A DNA stretch of 57,541 bases from the IMG/VR virus record IMGVR_UViG_3300029935_000001, positions 265,867 through 323,407 of that record, one strand, 5' to 3'. The position numbers and the translations under genes are program-made. Positions 5,426 through 56,786 of this stretch are shown in pieces; the stretch's first letter is position 1; the number at the start of each line of letters is the position of its first letter. Source of the DNA: a virus. Taxonomy: Duplodnaviria; Heunggongvirae; Uroviricota; Caudoviricetes. The notes under the pieces are model-generated. The model did not search any database and was not told where the DNA came from. It was given only the letters and a program-made list of their open reading frames with translations.

Positions 5426-5692
5426 ATGAAATTCCGCAAACCCAGTGAAGTTGGCTGCGCTTCGCTCAGTGCTTTTATTGGCTTTAACCTCGGCCGCGTT
5501 GTTGAAGGCATTCGCGGGATGGCGTGGGGTCTTGTTGCGCTGATTGTGCTCGTGCTTGCTCCGGTTCTGTGGCCGTTGGGCTACTTGTACCAAAACTTTT
5601 ACGGCCATGCGCGCGCGGTTGCTCAGAACAAAAAAGCCCGCCAGCGCTACATGGACGAATATCGTCAGAGGCTCGCCGGTAATGATAACTGA
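5426..5692 (+). CDS. small membrane protein
   Basis: GAGGAG RBS; hydrophobic central helix. Confidence 0.65.
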   Translation: MKFRKPSEVGCASLSAFIGFNLGRVVEGIRGMAWGLVALIVLVLAPVLWPLGYLYQNFYGHARAVAQNKKARQRYMDEYRQRLAGNDN

Positions 5693-5885
5693 AAGCACCC
5701 GAGACTACCTCTCGGGCATTGTGTTCTTGATGTTCGAGAGCAGTGTCCCTTCCTCGGACGAGATCAATGATTACTGCAAGACCAATTACGGGTTTGTACC
5801 AGCTCGGTCCGAGCTCGACATGCCCGCTGAGTTCCGCGGATACACTAACCCTGGTTGGGTGCGGTGTTATCCTGACCGCAAGTAA
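5682..5885 (+). CDS. hypothetical protein
   Basis: ATG 5682 overlaps the end of the upstream gene. Confidence 0.55.
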   Translation: MITESTRDYLSGIVFLMFESSVPSSDEINDYCKTNYGFVPARSELDMPAEFRGYTNPGWVRCYPDRK

Positions 5886-5897
5886 AAGGAGCATGCC

Positions 5898-6098
5898 ATG
5901 GCTGTAGAAGTGGTTCGAGTTTACACCAGTTTCAGCGACGACTTCGTTGCGGTTATCAACGGCAACGAAGTCGATCGGTTTTACAAGATAAGCGAGCAAA
6001 CGGTGGCGGCCATTATCCAAGCCGCTGGGCTCTCCGTGCAAATGGGCAAGACTGTAAACCGCAGCCAGTTTGCTGACACGTATGGCTTTCCGCCGTAA
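5898..6098 (+). CDS. hypothetical protein
   Basis: AAGGAG RBS. Confidence 0.65.
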   Translation: MAVEVVRVYTSFSDDFVAVINGNEVDRFYKISEQTVAAIIQAAGLSVQMGKTVNRSQFADTYGFPP

Positions 6099-6167
6099 CT
6101 CTCCTAACAACTATTACTCCCAGCGAGACACTCTTGTGTTTATTCGCAACGTCTACAAAGGCCGATC

Positions 6168-6659
6168 ATGAGCATCAAAGCCATCACCGAGATCGTCGTC
6201 TCTTCCCCTACTCGGTATCCCGACTGCCTTGTTGGCCTCGCTCGCGAGCTTGCTGCTGGATTCGCAACCCGGGCTGAATCAATGCGCGTGCTGCGTGGCG
6301 TTGCTCGGCCGCTGTGGGTTACGTACATTCTCAACGTCAGCTCTGTGCGGCGCCGTGTTATTACGCCGGTTCTTCGCAAGAGCTTCTCCGAAGCAGCAAT
6401 CAGCGAGTTCCACAAAGCCAAGTCCGACTGGCACACTGCCCGCTGGATTGAAGTCTCTTCGCAACGCAGACTGAAAGCGATGTATCGTTTGGCTGTAACC
6501 GAAGACCAGCAAGATTTTGCCGACGCCTACGAGTTCATTGTCGCAGCGCAGCATAAAACATCCACCCACACAATGCCTGGCGCGTGGGTCAACTCAGTCT
6601 CCCCTAACGATATCGCAGAAATTCTGGCCTGGCGCTGTGCCAAAGGAGTATCGCAATGA
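6168..6659 (+). CDS. hypothetical protein
   Basis: 163-aa ORF, ATGA-coupled to the next gene. Confidence 0.6.
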   Translation: MSIKAITEIVVSSPTRYPDCLVGLARELAAGFATRAESMRVLRGVARPLWVTYILNVSSVRRRVITPVLRKSFSEAAISEFHKAKSDWHTARWIEVSSQRRLKAMYRLAVTEDQQDFADAYEFIVAAQHKTSTHTMPGAWVNSVSPNDIAEILAWRCAKGVSQ

Positions 6660-6940
6660 AAATCCTCAAATACACAAACGACTGGGAGCATGACGTCTAC
6701 GCCGTCGACGGCGAGCGGGTGACCCAGCTCAAGGTCGTTGAGATCGACGAAGTCCAGTACCCAGTCATCGCCAAGATCTGCTCAGTCCAATATGATGACA
6801 TGGGGCACGTCTACACTGCTACGTCAACCCACTACTTTGTGGAGATTGATGTGCTCGGAGTCAAGACTCGAGTCGACCTAAACACCATTGTGCCTAAGCG
6901 CCGAGTGTATGCTGTAGCGTACTCGGTAAAGATAGGTTGA
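6656..6940 (+). CDS. hypothetical protein
   Basis: GGAG RBS, ATGA overlap. Confidence 0.65.
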   Translation: MKILKYTNDWEHDVYAVDGERVTQLKVVEIDEVQYPVIAKICSVQYDDMGHVYTATSTHYFVEIDVLGVKTRVDLNTIVPKRRVYAVAYSVKIG

Positions 6941-6965
6941 CCATTGGCCCAGATTCTGGTATAAT
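6937..6965 (+). promoter_or_regulatory. sigma70-type early promoter
   Basis: TTGACC-N17-TATAAT. Confidence 0.85.
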
Positions 6966-6991
6966 AGCTACATAACGAAACGGGGCCTACT

Positions 6992-7174
6992 ATGAAAGCC
7001 AAAAAAGTTGTTTTGATCTACGCAGACGTCGAACACAATGGTGTTGAGTTCCGCGTATACCCGAACGGTTATGTTGAGCAGTACCGGCACAACCTCTGGT
7101 GGGAATACGACACCTACGAAGACGACTACGATGCTATCCAAGCCGCTGGTGTTGCTGCGATTCGGGGAGAATGA
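6992..7174 (+). CDS. hypothetical protein
   Basis: First ORF after the promoter. Confidence 0.6.
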   Translation: MKAKKVVLIYADVEHNGVEFRVYPNGYVEQYRHNLWWEYDTYEDDYDAIQAAGVAAIRGE

Positions 7175-7761
7175 CCTTGTTTAAGATTGGCGATACAGTC
7201 GAATACATTGAAACCGGCGAGCTTGGCACTGTAATCGAGATCGACCGCGACGCAGGCGGCCCTGACTTTGGTATCTTGTGGGCAAGCGGCGACGAGTCGT
7301 GGGCCGAAGAAGAAGACCTGCGCCACGCTGCCCCGCTTGCTAAAGGCGACGTGGTCACTCTCACTGCTGACATATTTAGCAATGCCATAGAAAACGATGT
7401 CCTTAGGAACCTAACCGAAAACTGTTCACCGAACTTTTTCCAGGTGTTTGAAGCGCAAAGCAACGACATGTTCGATTACGACATTGCGCTTCCGGTGTAT
7501 CAACATTCCAATCTTTCATGGGCGCACGGCGCGGCCTACGATCTTTGGAAGGCTAACCCAGGTAAGCGTTACACTATCATTCAGCCGTACAATGGCTCGT
7601 GTGCCGGCGGCTACGGGTTTTCTGAACAACACTCGGAGGCAACAGAGCTCAAAATCATCCATCTCGAAGGCCCGTACTACATGGTCGTTGATCCGGTTAC
7701 TAACCATGAGCTGTACACTGGCTCGTACGAAAAGTGTCAGCAGTTCATTGATCTGTTCTAA
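7171..7761 (+). CDS. hypothetical protein with N-terminal KOW/SH3-like domain
   Basis: GGAG RBS, ATGA overlap; N-terminal ~65 aa paralogous to 7767..8066. Confidence 0.7.
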   Translation: MTLFKIGDTVEYIETGELGTVIEIDRDAGGPDFGILWASGDESWAEEEDLRHAAPLAKGDVVTLTADIFSNAIENDVLRNLTENCSPNFFQVFEAQSNDMFDYDIALPVYQHSNLSWAHGAAYDLWKANPGKRYTIIQPYNGSCAGGYGFSEQHSEATELKIIHLEGPYYMVVDPVTNHELYTGSYEKCQQFIDLF

Positions 7762-7766
7762 GGAGA

Positions 7767-39621: not shown

Positions 39622-41187
39622 ATGATAGATCAACACAACATGACTGAGCGCCAAACTGGCGCAGACGGACGCAGCAAATGGGCTTGTTTCTTGCCGGCCA
39701 TTAGCTCGTTCTACTCAACATACATCGGGCGGCAGCGACACGAAAACTATGTAGATGCTGCGCGAATGCCTGCTGGCATCCCGGACATGGAGCAGCTTAA
39801 CTTCCTCAACGATCAAAAGGGCTTGTTCCATTATCGTTGGGGATTGTACTCTGCTGGGCACGCTGACTTAGACATAACTAAGTTTGCGCCCAAAGAGGAC
39901 ATGATCCGTAATCGAGATCCTAACACTATTATTCTGGGCGACAGCGGAGGCTTCCAAATAGCCAAAGGTGTTTGGGAAGGCGACTGGAAAAACCCTTCTG
40001 ACCCAAAGAGCGCCAAGCGCCGCGAAACCGTACTAAAGTGGCTTGACGGAATTGCTGACTATGCAATGACGCTTGATGTACCAACTTGGATTATTCACGA
40101 CCCAGAAGCTTCTCGCAAGACTGGGATTTCTACATACCAAGAGGCCGTTGACACTACACAATACAATAACGAATATTTTATTGCTAACCGCAAAGGATGG
40201 CAAAATGGCGGTACCAAGTTCCTTAATGTAATGCAAGGGTCAAACCACGCCGAGTCGGACAACTGGTACAACTTGATGAAAAAGTATTGCGACCCAAAGG
40301 TGTACCCTGATCGTCACTTTAACGGATGGGCGTTTGGTGGTCAAAATATGTGCGATGTTCACCTAATCTTGCGTCGCATTGTTATTATGATTCACGACGG
40401 GTTGCTTGAGGAAGGAATCCACGACTGGATCCACGTTTTGGGCACGTCAAAACTCGAGTGGGCAGTAGTGCTGACTGAAATTCAGCGTGCTGTGCGCAAA
40501 TACCATAACCCCAACCTGACCATCAGCTTCGACTGCGCTAGTCCATTCCTTGCTACTGCTAACGGGCAGATTTACGTTGACACAGAAACTCCGCACGAAG
40601 GCAAATGGACGTATCGAATGGAGCCAACTGCCGATAACAAAGCATATGCAGGTGATAGCCGAAGCTTTAGAGATGCTGTGCTTCAAGACAGTATCCATAA
40701 GCGATTTATGGACAGTCCGGTCTCATCACGCCTTAAAATCTCTGATGTGTGCTACTATGCACCAGGCGCGCTGAACAAACTTGGAAAAGAAGGACGCACG
40801 TCGTGGGACTCATTTTCATACGCGCTAATGATGGGGCATAACGTGTGGATGCACATTAACGCCGTTCAACGTGCTAACGAGCAGTATGACCTCGGCGAAT
40901 ACCCTAAAATGTTAGTGGATGATACTTTTTCCAAATTAGAGTTTGGACAACTAGTTGACCAAATTTTTGCCCAAAAAGATCTTAAAAAAAGCTTAGAACT
41001 AATAGAATATTATTCTCGTTTTTGGACTAACATCGTTGGCACTCGAGGGTTTACCGGCAAACGTGCGGTTAATGCTCACACACAATTTAACGCGTTATTT
41101 GAAATAGAAGAAGAGCCACCAGTTAACGACGAAGGCTTAGATGAAACCTTACTTGACAATCTTGAACACGAGGTAGATGAGGAATGA
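39622..41187 (+). CDS. dpdA: TGT-fold guanine transglycosylase (DpdA-like)
   Basis: GDSGGFQ, LDVP, GWAFGG, IHVLG, SFDCAS; clustered with folE/queD/queE. Confidence 0.7.
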   Translation: MIDQHNMTERQTGADGRSKWACFLPAISSFYSTYIGRQRHENYVDAARMPAGIPDMEQLNFLNDQKGLFHYRWGLYSAGHADLDITKFAPKEDMIRNRDPNTIILGDSGGFQIAKGVWEGDWKNPSDPKSAKRRETVLKWLDGIADYAMTLDVPTWIIHDPEASRKTGISTYQEAVDTTQYNNEYFIANRKGWQNGGTKFLNVMQGSNHAESDNWYNLMKKYCDPKVYPDRHFNGWAFGGQNMCDVHLILRRIVIMIHDGLLEEGIHDWIHVLGTSKLEWAVVLTEIQRAVRKYHNPNLTISFDCASPFLATANGQIYVDTETPHEGKWTYRMEPTADNKAYAGDSRSFRDAVLQDSIHKRFMDSPVSSRLKISDVCYYAPGALNKLGKEGRTSWDSFSYALMMGHNVWMHINAVQRANEQYDLGEYPKMLVDDTFSKLEFGQLVDQIFAQKDLKKSLELIEYYSRFWTNIVGTRGFTGKRAVNAHTQFNALFEIEEEPPVNDEGLDETLLDNLEHEVDEE

Positions 41188-41690
41188 ACCGTGAAGGGCA
41201 CGACGATGTAAAGTTTTTTGTTGGCAACGAGGTCGAGCGCAGCCCAGCGCTGGGCTACCGCACACTGTTTGTAGTAGGTATTCAAGAGGTTGGCGAGATT
41301 ATCCAGCAAGCCAAGCAAAACCAGTGTCGGCACATTTACTTTGGCGCAAACCAAAGCTACTCAGCTAACAAGGATCATGAGCTTTGGGACCGCATGATTT
41401 TTGCTGTTCTAAGGCAGCATCCTGAATTTTTTGTGACGCTGGACTTCGACAGTCGTGATCTCGTGTCTGTACTCGAGAGTGGCTATACCGAGTATCGTCA
41501 GTTCATTCCAATGGTCTCGGTTAAGCTCCCTTACATCAACCAGCTCGGCTATAACGCCGTAATTAAGCTCGACGACCACGACTTTGCTGCTACTAACCCC
41601 GGGGTTTGGTGCCACATGCTAACCTCGCTAACCACCGAAAACTCAATGACTCGGTGGACTGAATACACCGGAGATACTACAATTGAATAA
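41184..41690 (+). CDS. hypothetical protein coupled to the DpdA-like gene
   Basis: ATGA overlap; 168 aa. Confidence 0.75.
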   Translation: MNREGHDDVKFFVGNEVERSPALGYRTLFVVGIQEVGEIIQQAKQNQCRHIYFGANQSYSANKDHELWDRMIFAVLRQHPEFFVTLDFDSRDLVSVLESGYTEYRQFIPMVSVKLPYINQLGYNAVIKLDDHDFAATNPGVWCHMLTSLTTENSMTRWTEYTGDTTIE

Positions 41691-41976
41691 GCTCAAGCGT
41701 TTTTTGCGCAACTGGCTCAATGATTGCTTGGCCAGCGAACCAGTGCGCGTTATCCGTGACGGCGACGGGCGCCTCGAAGGCCGGAAGTTTAGCTTCTCAG
41801 TGATTGCTGCCCAAGGCGGCAACATTGTCGAGGTTTACCACGCCGAAGAAACCAAGTACCACAACCCACAGGGCCCTTCGGCAGGACCTACGTTCTCGCA
41901 TCACATCATACCCGACAGTGAAGACTTTACCGAAGCTTTAGGTAAAATTGTCACTATGGAAATGCTACGGCGGTAG
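41683..41976 (+). CDS. hypothetical protein
   Basis: Coupled ORF. Confidence 0.6.
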   Translation: MNKLKRFLRNWLNDCLASEPVRVIRDGDGRLEGRKFSFSVIAAQGGNIVEVYHAEETKYHNPQGPSAGPTFSHHIIPDSEDFTEALGKIVTMEMLRR

Positions 41977-42005
41977 TTGACAAGGACCGCTTACATAGGT
42001 ATAAT
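41977..42005 (+). promoter_or_regulatory. sigma70-type promoter
   Basis: TTGACA-N17-TATAAT. Confidence 0.85.
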
Positions 42006-42011
42006 ACATAC

Positions 42012-42566
42012 ATGACAGCAACAAAAACATTCATTCGAGTTCGCACGCAGTTTGAAGGGTTTCATTACTACCCAGATGCCAACGAGATTGACACTCGCAT
42101 TGCGTTTCTCGAACACCCGCATCGACACTTGTTTAAAGTTGAAGCGAAAATCTCCGTAGAACACACTGACCGAGAACTCGAATTTTTCCTTGTTAAATGG
42201 GCGCTCGAAGCGTTTATTAAGTCGGGCAATCAAAACCACAAATCTTGCGAAATGATCGCAACCGACATTCTCGAGAAGCATCTAATCCCTTCGTATGGAG
42301 CCAAACGGTACTATGAAGTAACTGTATCTGAAGATGGCGAATCCGACGGTATTGTTGAACACCAACCCACTACTACAGGAACTCACAAGTATGAAGTAGA
42401 GAATCTTGGCACAGTAAACGAGACTGACACGCTGGTTGTTCGTATTCCAGCAACATTTAACAGCAAAGACGCTGAGCGACTCCAACATCAGCTGCTTGCG
42501 CAATACCCCAAAAACAATTTCATCATCGTACCTAACTCTCTTTCAATCACTAAGGAAAGTAACTAA
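42012..42566 (+). CDS. T-fold (QueD-like) protein, candidate DpdL-type enzyme
   Basis: FEGFH..HPHRHLF.V..DRELEF..SCEMIA..VTVSEDGE; ATG lies ~6 nt after the -10, so probably leaderless. Confidence 0.6.
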   Translation: MTATKTFIRVRTQFEGFHYYPDANEIDTRIAFLEHPHRHLFKVEAKISVEHTDRELEFFLVKWALEAFIKSGNQNHKSCEMIATDILEKHLIPSYGAKRYYEVTVSEDGESDGIVEHQPTTTGTHKYEVENLGTVNETDTLVVRIPATFNSKDAERLQHQLLAQYPKNNFIIVPNSLSITKESN

Positions 42567-42567
42567 A

Positions 42568-42798
42568 ATGGCTAAAATCACTATTAAACCCAATGCCAAG
42601 GCAGCCGAAGTCCTCAACGACCTCGAGGCTTATCTCAACTTCTGCCGCGCCTACGGCTATAAGTTTAATGAGGCCGATCTATACAACAGCAAGGCTTATG
42701 CCTACCAGCAATACACCAAGTTCCAAGCTGGTAAGCGGGCCAAGGATATGTGGGCTGAGGATGCTCGGCGCTTCGGCCTCACAATCGAGTCGGAATAA
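42568..42798 (+). CDS. hypothetical phage protein
   Basis: AAGGA RBS, ATG 42568. Confidence 0.7.
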   Translation: MAKITIKPNAKAAEVLNDLEAYLNFCRAYGYKFNEADLYNSKAYAYQQYTKFQAGKRAKDMWAEDARRFGLTIESE

Positions 42799-42824
42799 CC
42801 AATTCTGCTGTAACTGGTAAAACA

Positions 42825-42847
42825 AAAAGGGGCCTTGCGCCCCTTTT
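42825..42847 (+). terminator. intrinsic terminator
   Basis: AAAAGGGGC-CTTGC-GCCCCTTTT. Confidence 0.75.
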
Positions 42848-42863
42848 GTGCTATACTGTATTC

Positions 42864-43106
42864 ATGAGCTCTCTTAAATACCAAACTAAATTTATCGGGG
42901 GTTACGAGGCTGCTGTCCATATGTCCGCTTTCTTGAAGAAAAGCGGGTATGAACATTACTTGAATAAGAAGCGCGATAGCGATCCCTCGAATGTGTATTC
43001 GTGGCATGTAAGTTCAAAAGGTCGCGGCATAATTTACCTCCAGTACAATGACCCTAAGATTGCTTCGCTGCTTTCCCTTTCACACTTAAACTTGGAAACT
43101 TATTAA
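42864..43106 (+). CDS. hypothetical protein
   Basis: ORF filling the gap. Confidence 0.5.
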   Translation: MSSLKYQTKFIGGYEAAVHMSAFLKKSGYEHYLNKKRDSDPSNVYSWHVSSKGRGIIYLQYNDPKIASLLSLSHLNLETY

Positions 43107-43107
43107 T

Positions 43108-44283
43108 ATGCGTAAAATCTTCCATATGGGGCTTGAGTCATACCAAGCCCGCTACACTTACCAACTCACCGACTGGACTGAACGTATCTATAAGCGGCGC
43201 GGAGTTGATTACGTGATTGTCACTGGACAAGAACTTGACAACACCAAAGCTATCCAAGTTGGGCAAGTGCTCGACGCGCACGGTCGCGGCTACTACTCGC
43301 TCACGCAAATGGCCAATCTCATCCAACGAATGCGAAATGGTGAGGTCACTGGCAAGGATGTCATCTTTTTTGAAGACATGTTCACGCCAGGCATCGAATC
43401 GCTGCCCTATGTTCTGAATCAGATTCCCGAGCAGGATCGCCCGCGTGTGTTTGTGCGCTGCTTGGCGCAGACCATCGACCCTGACGATTTTGTCCACGTA
43501 TGGGACATGAGCAAGTGGATGGCCTACTATGAGCGCATGGTCGGCGAGTTTGCTACGGTCCTGGCCAGCAACGAAGAAATGGTCGCACATGCCAAGGTGG
43601 CCGGCTGGACTGCGCCGATCTACAACATCAGCGGCCTTGCGTTTAACTCCGCAGAGGTTCGCGAGCGGGTCAGCAACACAATCACCCCGTGGGCGCAACG
43701 AGACCAACGCGCGGTTTTTTCTGCACGTTGGGACCAAGAGAAGCAGCCCGAGTTTTACATGAGCCTCGCACGTCAGTATTACAAGATCAACCCCACGGTA
43801 GAGTTTGCGCTGCTTCAAGGTGGGCCGCTACGCTCTAACATTCCAGGCATGGTCGAACAGACTCGGGCATTCGCAGCCAGTGGCGAGGCCAATTTCAAGA
43901 TTTACGAAAATCTTCCAAAGAACGAATACTACCGCATGCTCAACACGTCGCGCGTGCTTGTAAATTCCGCCCTCCAGGATTGGACGAGTAATACTGTGAG
44001 CGAAGCAGACGCTCTGGGATGTAATGTGCTGTATCCTGCGTATCGCTCTTTCCCTGAGATCTTTGCGAATGACCACGAGCGCATGTATATTCCGTGGTCC
44101 GAAACTGACGCGATTAACAAGCTCGCCCTGTTGCTACAGGATGCGCATCCTAACATGGGCAAGATTTCGCGTTGGACCGACGGCACAATCGACCGCTGTA
44201 TCGACATCATGGAAGGCAAGGGCGAGCAGTGGAACCGCTCAGGTAAAGACTATCGCAGCAAAGTCTCGGCTGCGAAGTATTAA
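43108..44283 (+). CDS. GT-B (GT4-like) glycosyltransferase
   Basis: FSARWDQEKQP; QDWTSNTVSEADALG (D-x7-E); YPAYRSFPE. Confidence 0.8.
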   Translation: MRKIFHMGLESYQARYTYQLTDWTERIYKRRGVDYVIVTGQELDNTKAIQVGQVLDAHGRGYYSLTQMANLIQRMRNGEVTGKDVIFFEDMFTPGIESLPYVLNQIPEQDRPRVFVRCLAQTIDPDDFVHVWDMSKWMAYYERMVGEFATVLASNEEMVAHAKVAGWTAPIYNISGLAFNSAEVRERVSNTITPWAQRDQRAVFSARWDQEKQPEFYMSLARQYYKINPTVEFALLQGGPLRSNIPGMVEQTRAFAASGEANFKIYENLPKNEYYRMLNTSRVLVNSALQDWTSNTVSEADALGCNVLYPAYRSFPEIFANDHERMYIPWSETDAINKLALLLQDAHPNMGKISRWTDGTIDRCIDIMEGKGEQWNRSGKDYRSKVSAAKY

Positions 44284-44293
44284 AATATACGCA

Positions 44294-44557
44294 ATGAACG
44301 CACCCATCATATATAGTAAAGTAGACACACATATGCGAATTGAACGGTGTTACGGAGGGGTTTGGATTCACGGGCCCCTCAAACATCGGCAGAATGTGAT
44401 TGAGTGGTGCGAAGCTACATTTGGCGCCAGCGGTCACAATCCAAAATGCCGCTGGCGCGTCGGTAACTGGACACAGCATCGAGAATCATCGTCGTCGTGG
44501 CTGCTGTTCAAGCATGACGCAGATAAAATGATGTTCATGCTACGGTGGAAGAGCTAA
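44294..44557 (+). CDS. hypothetical protein
   Basis: VIEWCEATFG..RW..LLFKHDADKMMFMLRW. Confidence 0.6.
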   Translation: MNAPIIYSKVDTHMRIERCYGGVWIHGPLKHRQNVIEWCEATFGASGHNPKCRWRVGNWTQHRESSSSWLLFKHDADKMMFMLRWKS

Positions 44558-44580
44558 CCACCCTAATAAATGCCCATACA

Positions 44581-44946
44581 ATTGGCCTTGTCTGGTATGC
44601 GCTCGCATACCCCTATTGAGCTAGCCGAGGTAGTGCTCGTAGCCAGCGGAACTTAGGTGCTACTGTTATCGGAACGAGTTGATTCTCTTTCGATAGCCGT
44701 TAGAAGCGGACGATATCGCTTTAAATGATGCGGGCAACTGTGAAAAAGAAACAACCCGCGGTTTGGTATTTGCTGGCTGAAGGTGAATATCAAGCATCCG
44801 TTGATAGTCAAATAGAACGTAGGGAGTACCGGTCAACCGCTTCCGCGCTGCTGCTTGTATAGGGTGGTACATCGTTTTTTCAGCCAAAGTACGACTCACT
44901 GGAGTTCCTTTGTAAATTTGCCCGCTCTGGGCAAATTACGGCCAAT
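44581..44946 (+). ncRNA. candidate large structured ncRNA (~366 nt)
   Basis: Gene-free region closed by ATTGGCC/GGCCAAT; TGGCTGAA/TTCAGCCA long-range helix; several internal hairpins. Confidence 0.45.
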
Positions 44947-44990
44947 CTGCCTGGAATCATCAAAAGTTAAATCAAAAATGTTGCTTCAGA

Positions 44991-45028
44991 ACGAGTCGAA
45001 CACGAGTGACAAACGAGTGTGAGCGAGT
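44991..45028. repeat. four phased (A/G)CGAGT repeats
   Basis: Starts at 44991, 45002, 45013 and 45023 (period 11, 11, 10). Confidence 0.6.
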
Positions 45029-45204
45029 GATAGAAGCCCGTAGTGCGCAGCACTCGGTTCTGCAGTTGCTCTAATTCTACCCCTAGATTTAACATAGTCT
45101 TGTATAATGACTAAATACTTTTGTATCTCGCATGCACACGCCATGTCGCAGTAGACACACTGCATTAGACATGGCGAGACATATTTTATGGAGGATACCA
45201 CAAC

Positions 45205-45912
45205 ATGTCTCTTAACCGTACCAAAACTGACGCCGCGCTCGGACAACGAGTTCACGAACACTTAGTTCGCATGGGAGTAGAAACTCCCGGTGTAGGCACT
45301 ACACCAAAATTTGCCGGCGGAAACGACATCCCGGACCGAAAAACGCAGATTGAATATATCCAATCTAAGTTTGCTGACATTATGGAAGCTCTTGGTCTTG
45401 ACCTTTCCGATGATTCTCTTGAAGAAACTCCTAAGCGGGTAGCAAAAATGCTAGTGGGGGAAACCATGTACGGGCTCGAAATTGAATCGTTCCCAAAATG
45501 CACCACAGTTGAAAACAAAATGGGATACGACGAGATGGTCATTGAGCGCTCTATCACAGTCAAAAGCAACTGCGAGCATCACTTCCTGCCTATTGTTGGG
45601 CAAGCGTATGTAGCCTATATACCCAACACCAAGGTACTAGGTCTGTCCAAGATGCCGCGTGTAGTAGATTATTTCTCGCGTCGACCACAGATCCAAGAGC
45701 GGCTCACCGAGCAAGTATTTCACGCCCTTCAGTTCATCCTCGAAACTGACAACATCGCCGTAGTCATTGATGCTGACCATATGTGCGTATCACAACGTGG
45801 CGTTGAAGACACTTCGGCCAACACCGTAACGTCCAAACTCGGTGGGGTCTTCAAGACCGATCCTGCTGTGCGGGCTGAGTTCATGCGTCTGGTTCAGGTC
45901 AACACACGTTAA
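45205..45912 (+). CDS. folE: GTP cyclohydrolase I
   Basis: ETPKRVAK, CEHHFLP, GLSKMPR, RPQIQERLT, HMCVSQRGV. Confidence 0.95.
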   Translation: MSLNRTKTDAALGQRVHEHLVRMGVETPGVGTTPKFAGGNDIPDRKTQIEYIQSKFADIMEALGLDLSDDSLEETPKRVAKMLVGETMYGLEIESFPKCTTVENKMGYDEMVIERSITVKSNCEHHFLPIVGQAYVAYIPNTKVLGLSKMPRVVDYFSRRPQIQERLTEQVFHALQFILETDNIAVVIDADHMCVSQRGVEDTSANTVTSKLGGVFKTDPAVRAEFMRLVQVNTR

Positions 45913-45921
45913 CCTAAATCA

Positions 45922-45960
45922 TTGACAGTGTTACGCACCGGTAGTTATACTGTGCGTAAC
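45922..45960 (+). promoter_or_regulatory. sigma70-type promoter with a 9-bp inverted repeat around the -10
   Basis: TTGACA-N18-TATACT; GTTACGCAC/GTGCGTAAC. Confidence 0.65.
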
Positions 45961-45980
45961 ACTTACACTATAGGTTAATC

Positions 45981-46385
45981 ATGGACGACCAATATTCGAC
46001 TACCATCAACCCCGAGCTGCCCGCTGCTATCTCCGACGTCCCATGGGGCACAGATTCTCTTGTTGCTGAAGATTTTCATGTTCGCATTCATCGCGACCGG
46101 AGTCCTGTGAGTCCAGGACATCTGCTTTTTGTTCCGCGCTATAACACCACGCTAATCTTAGGCGAAGCGTTCAACGAGGCGTTTCGATATGGCCGGCACC
46201 GCGTCGATATAGGCGAGTGGGCCGGATTCAACATTGGTATGAACTACGGAACGGCCGCAGGGCAAACAGTGGCCTGGCCGCATATTCACTTAATTCCGCG
46301 GTACGAAGGTGACGTTGCGGACCCAACAGGCGGCGTTCGGAATGTTATTCCGGGCAAAGGTAACTACATTAAAGGCAATGAATAA
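45981..46385 (+). CDS. HIT-family nucleotide hydrolase
   Basis: SPGHLLFVP, AAGQTV.WPHIHLIPR. Confidence 0.9.
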   Translation: MDDQYSTTINPELPAAISDVPWGTDSLVAEDFHVRIHRDRSPVSPGHLLFVPRYNTTLILGEAFNEAFRYGRHRVDIGEWAGFNIGMNYGTAAGQTVAWPHIHLIPRYEGDVADPTGGVRNVIPGKGNYIKGNE

Positions 46386-46912
46386 TGAAATTTCCAGCAG
46401 TAACGTATCGTTACACCTCGACTAAAGAGTACATTGACGCGTTCCCATGTGCATACCGGCAATGGCGTGCCGACGACAAGCCAGATGGTCGGCCTGGTTG
46501 CAATAAAATCCATGGATACTCGTTTAGTATCAAGCTTTATTTTGGCTCTAATCACTTGGATGTTCGAAATTGGATTGTAGATTACGGCGGGTTGCGCGAG
46601 TTGAAGCAGGTACTCGAAGATCAGTTTGATCACACATTGCTAGTCAGTGCCGACGACCCCCATATTGATTGGTTCAAAGAAGCCGAAAAGCGTGGAATTG
46701 CTAAGCTAACTGTGCTGCCAAAGGTTGGGTGCGAAGGACTGGCAGATCAAATTTACAAGTTTGTAAATGGTGTTTTTATTCCTGACTGCTTAGGGCAAGG
46801 CGAAGCTGAACGCTTGTGGTGTTATCGCGTTTCGGTTAGGGAGACGCAGTCTAACGAAGCTCATCGCAGTGGTCACCGAGAGTGGAACGAAGACCTGTAT
46901 GAAGGGCTATAA
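46385..46912 (+). CDS. queD: 6-carboxy-tetrahydropterin synthase
   Basis: CNKIHGYS, VDYGGL, FDHTLL, GCEGLA, VRET. Confidence 0.85.
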   Translation: MKFPAVTYRYTSTKEYIDAFPCAYRQWRADDKPDGRPGCNKIHGYSFSIKLYFGSNHLDVRNWIVDYGGLRELKQVLEDQFDHTLLVSADDPHIDWFKEAEKRGIAKLTVLPKVGCEGLADQIYKFVNGVFIPDCLGQGEAERLWCYRVSVRETQSNEAHRSGHREWNEDLYEGL

Positions 46913-46914
46913 CA

Positions 46915-47775
46915 GTGGAAAAGATTAAAGTTTCTGAAAAGTTCTACTCACTTCAAGGCGAAGGTCGCTTTGTGGGTGTGCCTAGTGTGTTTTTGCGGAC
47001 GTTTGGTTGCAATTTTACCTGCGCTGGGTTTGGTCTTGGGCGCGGTGAACGCAGCACTGAAGCCGACGCAGTAGCTAAGAACGTTCAGCTATATAGCAAG
47101 CTTGAAGATTTACCGCTAGTTAAAACGGGCTGTGATTCCTACGCAAGTTGGCATCCAAAGTTCAAGCACCTTAGTCCTACATATGCTGTAGACGATTTAG
47201 CGCGCGAATTAGCGTCTCTTGTTCCGGGGCACCAGTGGGTAACAGCAAATGGCAACGATACTCACTTAGTTATCACCGGTGGCGAGCCTCTGCTTGGCTG
47301 GCAACGTGCATACGGCGGGCTACTTGACCAGGCGCCGATGCGGTCGCTGCGGAATCTCACCTTCGAAACCAACGGCACTCAAGAGCTTAGCGACGCACTA
47401 GCAACCTACCTCGAATGCTGGCAAGGGCAAAGCAATCGCGAAGTGACCTTCTCAGTGAGCCCAAAGCTATCCGCTAGCGGCGAAAAGTGGAGCGAAGCGA
47501 TTCGTCCCGAAATTATTTCCGGATATGCCGACATTGGCTTCGTTTACCTCAAGTTTGTGGTAGCAACACAAGACGACTTTGACGAAGCACGGCGAGCCAC
47601 TGTTGAGTACCGAGCTGCAGGATTTGAAGGGCCAGTCTACCTAATGCCAGTAGGCGGAGTTGCTGAGGTCTATGGAGAGAATCGGTTCAACGTAGCGCAC
47701 GCTGCTATGAGCGAAGGCTGGTACTATTCCCCAAGACTTCACATCGACCTCTGGGGGAACCAGTGGGGGTCTTAA
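46915..47775 (+). CDS. queE: 7-carboxy-7-deazaguanine synthase (radical SAM)
   Basis: SEKFYSLQGEG, FLRTFGCNFTC..CDS, ITGGEPL, ETNGT, SPKL, SPRLH. Confidence 0.92.
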   Translation: MEKIKVSEKFYSLQGEGRFVGVPSVFLRTFGCNFTCAGFGLGRGERSTEADAVAKNVQLYSKLEDLPLVKTGCDSYASWHPKFKHLSPTYAVDDLARELASLVPGHQWVTANGNDTHLVITGGEPLLGWQRAYGGLLDQAPMRSLRNLTFETNGTQELSDALATYLECWQGQSNREVTFSVSPKLSASGEKWSEAIRPEIISGYADIGFVYLKFVVATQDDFDEARRATVEYRAAGFEGPVYLMPVGGVAEVYGENRFNVAHAAMSEGWYYSPRLHIDLWGNQWGS

Positions 47776-54901: not shown

Positions 54902-55675
54902 AAGCGAATTGCAACGCCTATAGAAACAACAGAACTTTGTTCGTATGGTTGTGGCCAGGTTGGGAAGTATGTTAACGGATCGGGAAAAATAATGTGCTCC
55001 GAACGACATAACTCTTGCCCAGCAAACAGAAAGAAAAACTCTGCCGGCTTGAAAGAAGCACATAGGAGAGTTTTTGAAAAAACTGGAAAAGCAACCTTTT
55101 ATGATTATTCGATGTTGCCAGAAGAAACAAAACATCGAATGAATCATAATAAGGGCAAAACAGCCGAAACCTATGAACCAGTTAGGAAACGGACAGAAGC
55201 GTGGAAAAAGAGTTATTCTAAGCATAAATGTAATGCTACGCCAAAAGGTGTAGCAGCTGATCCGAGTTTGCGATGGAAGAGGAATAAAATTCCGTATATT
55301 GATTGGCAAGGAAACAAGTGTGTTTTAGAGTCAATACACGAATGGCAAGTAGCTAATGAACTTGACAAAAATCAAGTTCGCTGGATTAGGCCAAGATATA
55401 TTAGGTTAGCAGACGGAAGGAAATATGAACCGGATTTTTATCTAATAGATTTTGATATCTATTTAGATCCAAAAACAGAATGGAAAGGTAAAGCTAAAAA
55501 ATACCAAGGTTATTCCGGTCAAGACGGGCAACTTGAAAAAATAAAACAAGTTGAAAAAGAATTAGGTGTAAAAATTCTAATTTTATGGTCTTCTGATAAA
55601 AGATCGTTTAGTTGGAAAGGCATAGAGGAACAAATAAGGGCGTGTGGCGAAATTGGTAAGACGCAATGGACTTAA
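54899..55675 (+). mobile_element. putative homing endonuclease (Zn finger plus PD-(D/E)XK domain)
   Basis: LCSYGC..C..CPAN; ESIHE..YEPDFYL..IYLDPK; AT-rich; 3' end overlaps tRNA-Leu. Confidence 0.7.
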
Positions 55676-55724
55676 AATCCATCGACCTTGAGTCATGTGG
55701 GTTCGAATCCCACCATGCCCACCA
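55638..55724 (+). tRNA. tRNA-Leu (UAA)
   Basis: GGGCGTG/CATGCCC acceptor stem, ATGGA-CT-TAA-AA-TCCAT anticodon arm, long variable arm, GTTCGAATC, encoded CCA. Confidence 0.95.
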
Positions 55725-56699: not shown

Positions 56700-56786
56700 G
56701 CGGATGTGGCCTAATGGTTGGGCGCCAGCCTTCCAAGCTGGTAAGGCGAAAGCCGTAAGCAGGTTCGATTCCTGTCATCCGCTCCA
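56700..56786 (+). tRNA. tRNA-Gly (UCC) with a 17-nt variable arm
   Basis: GCGGATG/CATCCGC, U73, CCA; CCAGC-CT-TCC-AA-GCTGG; variable region TAAGGCGAAAGCCGTAA. Confidence 0.92.

Follow-up and report, generated by a model that had tools for sequence, protein, structure and literature searches.

Bacteriophage T4 has several R-loop origins per genome, among them oriF, oriG and oriE, which are located near transcription strand switches (PMC3016281). They are about 100 bp in length, share no common sequence and need no folded RNA; they comprise an A/T-rich unwinding element, and short direct repeats are found at oriE (PMC3016281). The rules for R-loop formation at these origins have been listed as open (PMC3016281), and among T4-like giant phages the start of replication is essentially understood for T4 alone. 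In the ColE1 origin, a structured transcript is followed by a direct-repeat box and by a single-strand signal on the displaced strand (PMC5043065, PMC4412123, PMC3167613). In ColE1 a G6 tract is itself repeated, at 928 and 1174, in keeping with the rG–dC hybrid model (PMC4412123). GOLLD, ROOL and OLE are large, pseudoknotted, phage-borne and apparently abundant RNAs (PMC12286853), whilst the Polynucleobacter-1 RNA motif (RF01718) was described by Weinberg et al. in 2010 (PMC2864571), the only paper on this motif that was found.

The phage record investigated here is complete and measures 323 kb, the window being its final 57.5 kb. Positions 44583–45057 of its + strand, roughly 475 nt, almost certainly constitute a real RNA element. 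We propose, with confidence evenly divided for and against, that this element acts in cis as a replication origin primed by RNA, in the manner of ColE1. The likeness to the ColE1 type would probably be one of working and not of homology. The order of the parts would be the same, with the tail as a candidate for the single-strand signal, but the boxes of the element are 50–85 nt apart and variable, whereas the G6 tracts of ColE1 are 245 nt apart, and the phage, unlike ColE1, encodes its own replisome. No sequence homology with RNA II of ColE1 was detected and no antisense RNA I or Rop was seen. As in T4, a single genome would contain multiple R-loop origins close to transcription strand switches, and the unwinding element and direct repeats of T4 can be likened to parts of the element; unlike the T4 origins, however, it is a conserved, pseudoknotted RNA of 400–500 nt. 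GOLLD, ROOL and OLE resemble it in size and pseudoknotting, but the element lies outside tRNA islands and possesses a twin box and a DNA-type tail.

Position and extent of the element

A gap without credible ORFs, noted in a preliminary description at 44558–45110, was confirmed and proved to be longer (44558–45204), extending between a 74-codon ORF and folE. The longest stop-free stretch on its + strand was 68 codons, and two short ORFs (45 and 55 aa) within it both lacked a ribosome-binding site. The neighbouring block contains DNA polymerase B, a weak glycosyltransferase match, HIT, queD, queE and a T4 RNase H-type exonuclease, and the element (copy A) is located between the DNA polymerase B gene and the gene for the T4 RNase H-type 5′–3′ exonuclease. 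The element continues for about 110 nt beyond the end of the extent given previously (44581–44946), to about 45057. Upstream of it are a late-promoter-like motif (44564–44572, presumably a promoter), with one mismatch to the TAAATA consensus of the genome, and, ahead of this motif, a small hairpin (44544–44562) that also occurs before paralog B. On the 3′ side the element is bounded by a −10 hexamer and late-promoter motif (45103–45117), which lie outside it and belong to folE.

Folding and covariation

Folding of the + strand was above chance (z −2.96, 0 of 100 shuffles), in contrast to that of the − strand (z −0.88), and eight perfect helices of at least 7 bp were observed in the gap compared with 2.7 expected. 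All the complementary segments listed in the preliminary description were found (44581/44940, 44774/44879, hairpin 44594–44611, 44704/44717, 44730/44755 and 44912/44929, the last being a hairpin of 11 bp with a one-base bulge). The segments 44581/44940 had been regarded as a closing helix, but this pairing had a probability of 0.01 and several of its columns could pair in fewer than one third of the homologs; the 5′ bases instead pair locally with 44659–44662, where compensatory changes were seen. The long-range pairing 44774/44879 was upheld, although not as a nested helix, since it forms a loop pseudoknot that is conserved throughout the family.

The 5′ domain (44583–44662) is 92 % identical to that of paralog B and 85 % identical to that of paralog C, and comprises P1 (44583–44586/44659–44662), hairpin P2 (44594–44611), P3 (44612–44615/44654–44657) and an inner hairpin (44626–44639). 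It is followed by two hairpins of free sequence that are enlarged in the copies of this genome (44665–44726; about 40 % identity between paralogs, z −3.0). The covariation alignment then gave P5, which has a conserved A-rich loop (44730–44734/44755–44759), and P6 (44763–44773/44783–44793). The element carries two pseudoknots. PK2 is formed by the P6 loop (44774–44781) with 44879–44886, whilst PK1 (44800–44805/44832–44837) is contained in the conserved core (44800–44878) together with P7 (44816–44819/44873–44876) and P8 (44822–44827/44839–44844).

In 46 homologs, 41 base pairs in 11 helices were paired in 95.3 % of cases and 27 of them had compensatory changes on both sides. The covariation score for these homologs was 0.335, compared with 0.131 for shuffled and less than 0.09 for slid alignments, for a model drawn with the same 46 sequences in view and with their relatedness uncorrected. 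Part of P8 and PK1 was fixed by the search pattern itself; more distant members, retrieved by another pattern, revealed further compensatory types in both. The sequence of PK2 is entirely different in copies A, B and C with complementarity kept, and over the 46 sequences the complementarity to the own partner was 6.43 nt, against 3.86 ± 0.18 nt with swapped partners.

Three wastewater metatranscriptomes, from three studies, contained contigs of at least 95 % identity that fell, within 5 kb, in the element only (44657–44902, 44672–44887 and 44826–45014); one of them extends into the tail, and a DNA run covered the entire 5-kb stretch. Since the contigs were unstranded and of low depth (2.5–3.2), and the runs had been chosen for containing part of a 2-kb query, they are regarded as a hint of an accumulating transcript that is unmapped, and the missing cover over the flanking genes does not show that those genes are silent. 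Covariation, strand-specific folding and these contigs support the earlier suggestion of a large non-coding RNA. Searches with Rfam, at gathering and E-value thresholds, and with ARAGORN revealed no tmRNA, RNase P, group I or II intron, small ribozyme or known riboswitch, in agreement with the lack of tmRNA, RNase P and group I signatures already noted. The covariance models of GOLLD, ROOL and OLE gave no match either, and by score the element belongs to no Rfam family.

Twin box and tail

Downstream of the core, two anchored 7-mers flank the long hairpin P10 (44912–44939): box 1 (44898–44904; 44894–44906 including its anchor) and box 2 (44950–44956; 44945–44958 including its anchor). These boxes vary together, and across the alignment the top three signals of covariation reflect identity, not complementarity. 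When located by the anchors alone, the boxes were identical in 73 of 75 homologs, and box identity was 91 % compared with 12.5 % after shuffling. Within this genome identity is full in copy C, 6/7 in copy B and 5/7, with a one-base shift, in copy A, whose boxes are thus not identical. No complement of the box was found within the RNA and none was enriched nearby, there being a mild same-strand excess downstream (24 vs 15); the boxes, spaced 49–64 nt apart in this comparison, showed no helical phasing. Of the mismatches at the next two positions downstream of the box, 55 had the wobble direction that would be tolerated if box-1 RNA paired with the box-2 template and 4 had the opposite one; these counts come from related sequences and not from independent events, and the bias was absent from the Rak2-type copies. 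Both mismatches of copy A are in the wobble-tolerated direction, and its RNA at 44899–44906 could pair over 8 bp, including two wobbles, with the template strand of 44951–44958.

Box 2 is followed by an A-rich linker (44959–44982; family mean 48 % A, 26 % T), a candidate unwinding element, and by the tail (44983–45057), a candidate single-stranded DNA priming signal. The first tail hairpin (44983–44987/45033–45037) has a purine-rich repeated loop, with 41 of 42 nt in common with paralog B, and the second (45038–45057) has a C-GCA-G triloop. Mini-hairpins of the GNA type have much greater stability in DNA than in RNA and occur at the origins of phages G4, St-1 and alpha3 and at ssiA of RSF1010 (PMC13037366). 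The tail loops are of this DNA type, with GNA triloops and GNNA loops closed by C–G, tandem GA pairs and hardly any G–U. Stems capped by C-GNA-G or C-GNNA-G numbered 53 on the sense strand of the tails and 0 on the other strand, and their density was 4.3 per kb compared with 0.10 in the background (45 times) and 0.17 in the RNA core. The second tail hairpin was represented by 26 GNA triloops and one GNRA loop, with seven G–U among 410 pairs; the core hairpin, by contrast, had 37 GNRA loops and no GNA triloop. The cultured phages behaved likewise (18 vs 1), and the DNA-type mini-hairpin of copy A is at 45042–45054. Alignment of the tail with plasmids gave nothing significant, and in a plain alignment with ColE1 45 of 200 shuffles scored equally well. 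ColE1 contains a single instance of the tail motif, which lies on the sense strand of RNA II some 140 nt downstream of the origin. ColE1 position 1332 is, we assume, ssiA.

Copies in the genome and home locus

Three co-oriented copies are present in the 323-kb genome, namely A, B (at about 217.6 kb) and C (at about 93.2 kb). They formed one clade in a FastTree tree (support 0.87–0.97), which indicates that A is a lineage-specific duplicate. An independent DNA run contained a strain with A at the same place, plus B. The core motif retrieved more than 120 viral contigs, in which the home locus of the family was directly behind a GIY-YIG gene in 90 of 126 loci, beside gp46/47, and faced baseplate-hub genes in 75 of 117. 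This locus sits at a transcription strand switch; paralog C occupies such a position, behind GIY-YIG and facing the baseplate-hub genes, whereas A and B do not. Fourteen related records, including two complete ones, had one copy each at a fixed locus. No match to viral and metagenome contigs was obtained with copy-specific 5′ patterns.

The spacing of copies was more even than chance, with minimum-gap P values of 0.019 here, 0.003 in Munch, 0.047 in PBECO4 and 0.071 in XaC1, the Rak2-like genomes not being independent of one another. The cumulative GC skew had its minimum at 91.5 kb, near paralog C, but it tracks gene strand; neither the strand-corrected skew nor the third-position skew revealed a switch at any copy. 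Two segments (44590–44647 and 44989–45030) are near-identical in A and B, the middle being about 70 % identical, and assemblies break there; strong selection and gene conversion are alternative explanations. Family members were also seen inside MAG bins labelled Haliscomenobacter and Flavobacteriales; these are probably phage contigs and offer a weak host lead.

Relationship to Polynucleobacter-1 and Rak2-like phages

The element shares a conserved core, and helices with covariation, with the twin-box RNA family of lake phages. It is a homolog of the twin-box RNA of these phages and, at a greater distance, of a multicopy RNA of cultured Rak2-like phages. Beyond the 3′ end of the modelled part, the published rows of Polynucleobacter-1, compared by eye and unscored, contain the core of the element, its two anchors, each with an identical 7-mer, and its tail, and the neighbouring gene is of phage type, as here. 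The 141 positions of the RF01718 model represent the divergent 5′ part only, with the core, pseudoknots, twin box and tail outside it, and the model had no match in this genome at E up to 10.

The cultured relatives were found by synteny only, BLAST searches of 50,697 phage records with copy A and with a lake copy having returned nothing. PBECO4, Munch and XaC1 each have a gap devoid of genes at the home locus or close by, and its architecture and strand are those of the element. The Rak2-like RNA was present in 72 phage records, mostly with 4–5 copies each, two being detected in RaK2 and K64-1. All ten copies extracted from Rak2-like phages had the core, compensatory changes in P7 and P8 and a co-varying twin box. 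A model built from lake cores alone ranked the Rak2-like cores first (E 0.003–0.64, a rough estimate), and a single descriptor, tuned on both groups, found 3 of 3 copies here and 11 of 11 Rak2-type copies, with 0 in shuffles. Plain HMMs of the lake and Rak2 families gave no match in one direction and a best match of E 0.17 in the other. The homology claimed between the two groups covers the core, twin box, hairpin and tail, not the 5′ halves. What is new in these sequence comparisons is that these four parts are common to the lake-phage RNA and to the cultured Rak2-like phages PBECO4, Munch and XaC1, and the element is a member of a barely described superfamily.

The syntenic sites of Phosso, Atu_ph07, Ettore and Vibrio 2.275.O contained no convincing copy. 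Near that of Sinorhizobium phage Phosso there is a 1-kb structured-looking gap without genes (5837–7762 of the piece examined), flanked by RNase HI and Holliday junction resolvase; it has tail-like motifs on the opposite strand and no match to the core model. At the syntenic site of Pseudomonas phage Ettore, a 1.5-kb stretch (5528–7042 of the piece examined) with tiny annotated ORFs only has tail-like hairpins and is possibly a more divergent element. Rak2-type RNA was also present in two Escherichia coli chromosomal islands. The island at ffs in NZ_AP027515.1 (4958–15302 of the piece examined) carries an IS3-split integrase and a full copy of the RNA, its twin box and tail included, together with genes of the DUF4326, DUF488 and dual-OB types; it may be a satellite or defence island.

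Proposed function as a replication origin

The preliminary description had set a replication origin against a non-coding RNA, but the evidence suggests that the two are not exclusive and that the element may be an RNA-primed origin. In the proposed mechanism, the nascent RNA would fold and hairpin P10 would carry box 1 to the transcription bubble, allowing box 1 to pair with the template strand of box 2; because of this pairing the boxes would have to match whatever their sequence. A persistent R-loop would extend through the A-rich linker, and the phage RNase H-type nuclease and polymerase would use the RNA as a primer, whilst the displaced sense DNA strand would fold its tail into mini-hairpins, loading helicase or primase. 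The extra copies would supply one origin per roughly 100 kb.

Action in cis is suggested by the co-oriented, evenly spaced copies. The origin reading is favoured by the occurrence of DNA-type tail hairpins only on the strand that an R-loop would displace, by the tail motif past the ColE1 origin, and by twin boxes that are identical, have no complement in cis and show the wobble bias. Further support comes from the strand switch in transcription at the home locus, a feature also of T4 oriE, oriF and oriG (PMC3016281), and from the location of copy A between the polymerase and exonuclease genes. Early-type promoters, which precede 9 of 11 Rak2-type copies, were also counted in its favour. It is weakened by the promoter motifs of the copies in this genome, which are of late type and not early or middle, the R-loop origins of T4 being shut off late (PMC3016281). 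The RNA seems to accumulate above the neighbouring mRNAs, like a stable RNA rather than a consumed primer, and one RNA contig enters the tail (to 45014); both weaken the reading, as do the imperfect boxes of A and B, the lack of a strand-corrected skew switch and the non-significant plain alignment of the tail with ColE1. More tentatively, the element might exemplify a widespread class of jumbo-phage origin in which the primer RNA is conserved and pseudoknotted, the twin box is a programmable latch for the R-loop and mini-hairpins are the signal for priming. Such a class would span the cultured enterobacterial phages related to Rak2 as well as the uncultured phages of lakes, and would have been captured by chromosomal islands possibly replicating on the machinery of a helper phage. 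If this is true, a conserved RNA-based origin would render origins predictable in hundreds of genomes and would assign a role to an RNA class that has been an orphan since its first sighting in 2010.

Alternative explanations

A free, abundant, trans-acting RNA is a weaker candidate, although one to be taken seriously. It might serve a GOLLD/ROOL-like assembly or be a decoy with two identical boxes that are recognised by a dimeric protein or by a partner RNA evolving with them, with the tail only ending or protecting the transcript and the copies raising dosage. The exclusive coverage of the element in three metatranscriptomes and its ornate fold, which combines two pseudoknots with a core that hardly varies, are consistent with this, as are the phage-borne, abundant GOLLD and ROOL (PMC12286853) and the island copy at ffs beside integrase and DUF4326/DUF488/OB-fold genes. 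Such an RNA leaves unexplained the DNA-type triloops and scarce G–U of the tail and the even dispersal of copies away from tRNA and small-RNA arrays, and the failure to match GOLLD, ROOL or OLE also argues against it. The link to PBECO4, 121Q, Munch and RaK2 makes both this and the origin reading testable in E. coli. A transcription-activated cis site for a late DNA transaction besides initiation (a recombination hotspot, a packaging start, or a place nicked by the GIY-YIG or endonuclease VII encoded nearby) appears improbable. The late-type motifs before the copies of this genome and a home locus beside gp46/47 and GIY-YIG or endonuclease VII would suit it, and even spacing and single-strand hairpins would fit equally; A and paralog B, however, have no adjacent nuclease gene and the Rak2-type copies have early promoters.

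There is very little likelihood of a mobile ribozyme or intron-like selfish element that has spread within the genome. The single clade of A, B and C indicates duplication in this lineage together with the upstream promoter region, but the element is intergenic and interrupts no gene, it matched no group I, group II, RNase P or small-ribozyme model, the genome lacks a reverse transcriptase, and 14 relatives have a single copy at a fixed locus. Least probable of all is a 5′ leader or riboswitch for folE and the 7-deazaguanine genes. The element is directly upstream of folE on the same strand, and the preliminary description had implied a link to this modification cluster, proposing that covariation be sought upstream of folE in relatives. 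None of 80 related folE loci carries the element, however, and no conservation was found there. Paralogs B and C precede genes unrelated to folE, which itself has its own promoter motifs downstream of the element, and no preQ1 or folE-motif match was obtained.

Other features of the window

The 7-deazaguanine block (39622–47775) includes a TGT-like gene, a second T-fold gene, a weak glycosyltransferase match, folE, HIT, queD and queE; no queC was seen within it. The 5′ leader of folE contains a strong hairpin (45140–45175, z −4.4), placed after the promoter motifs and ahead of the ribosome-binding site, that was absent at the 80 related folE loci. Towards the end of the window are genes for tRNA-Leu(TAA) (55638–55724) and for tRNA-Gly(TCC) with an unusually long variable arm (56700–56786).
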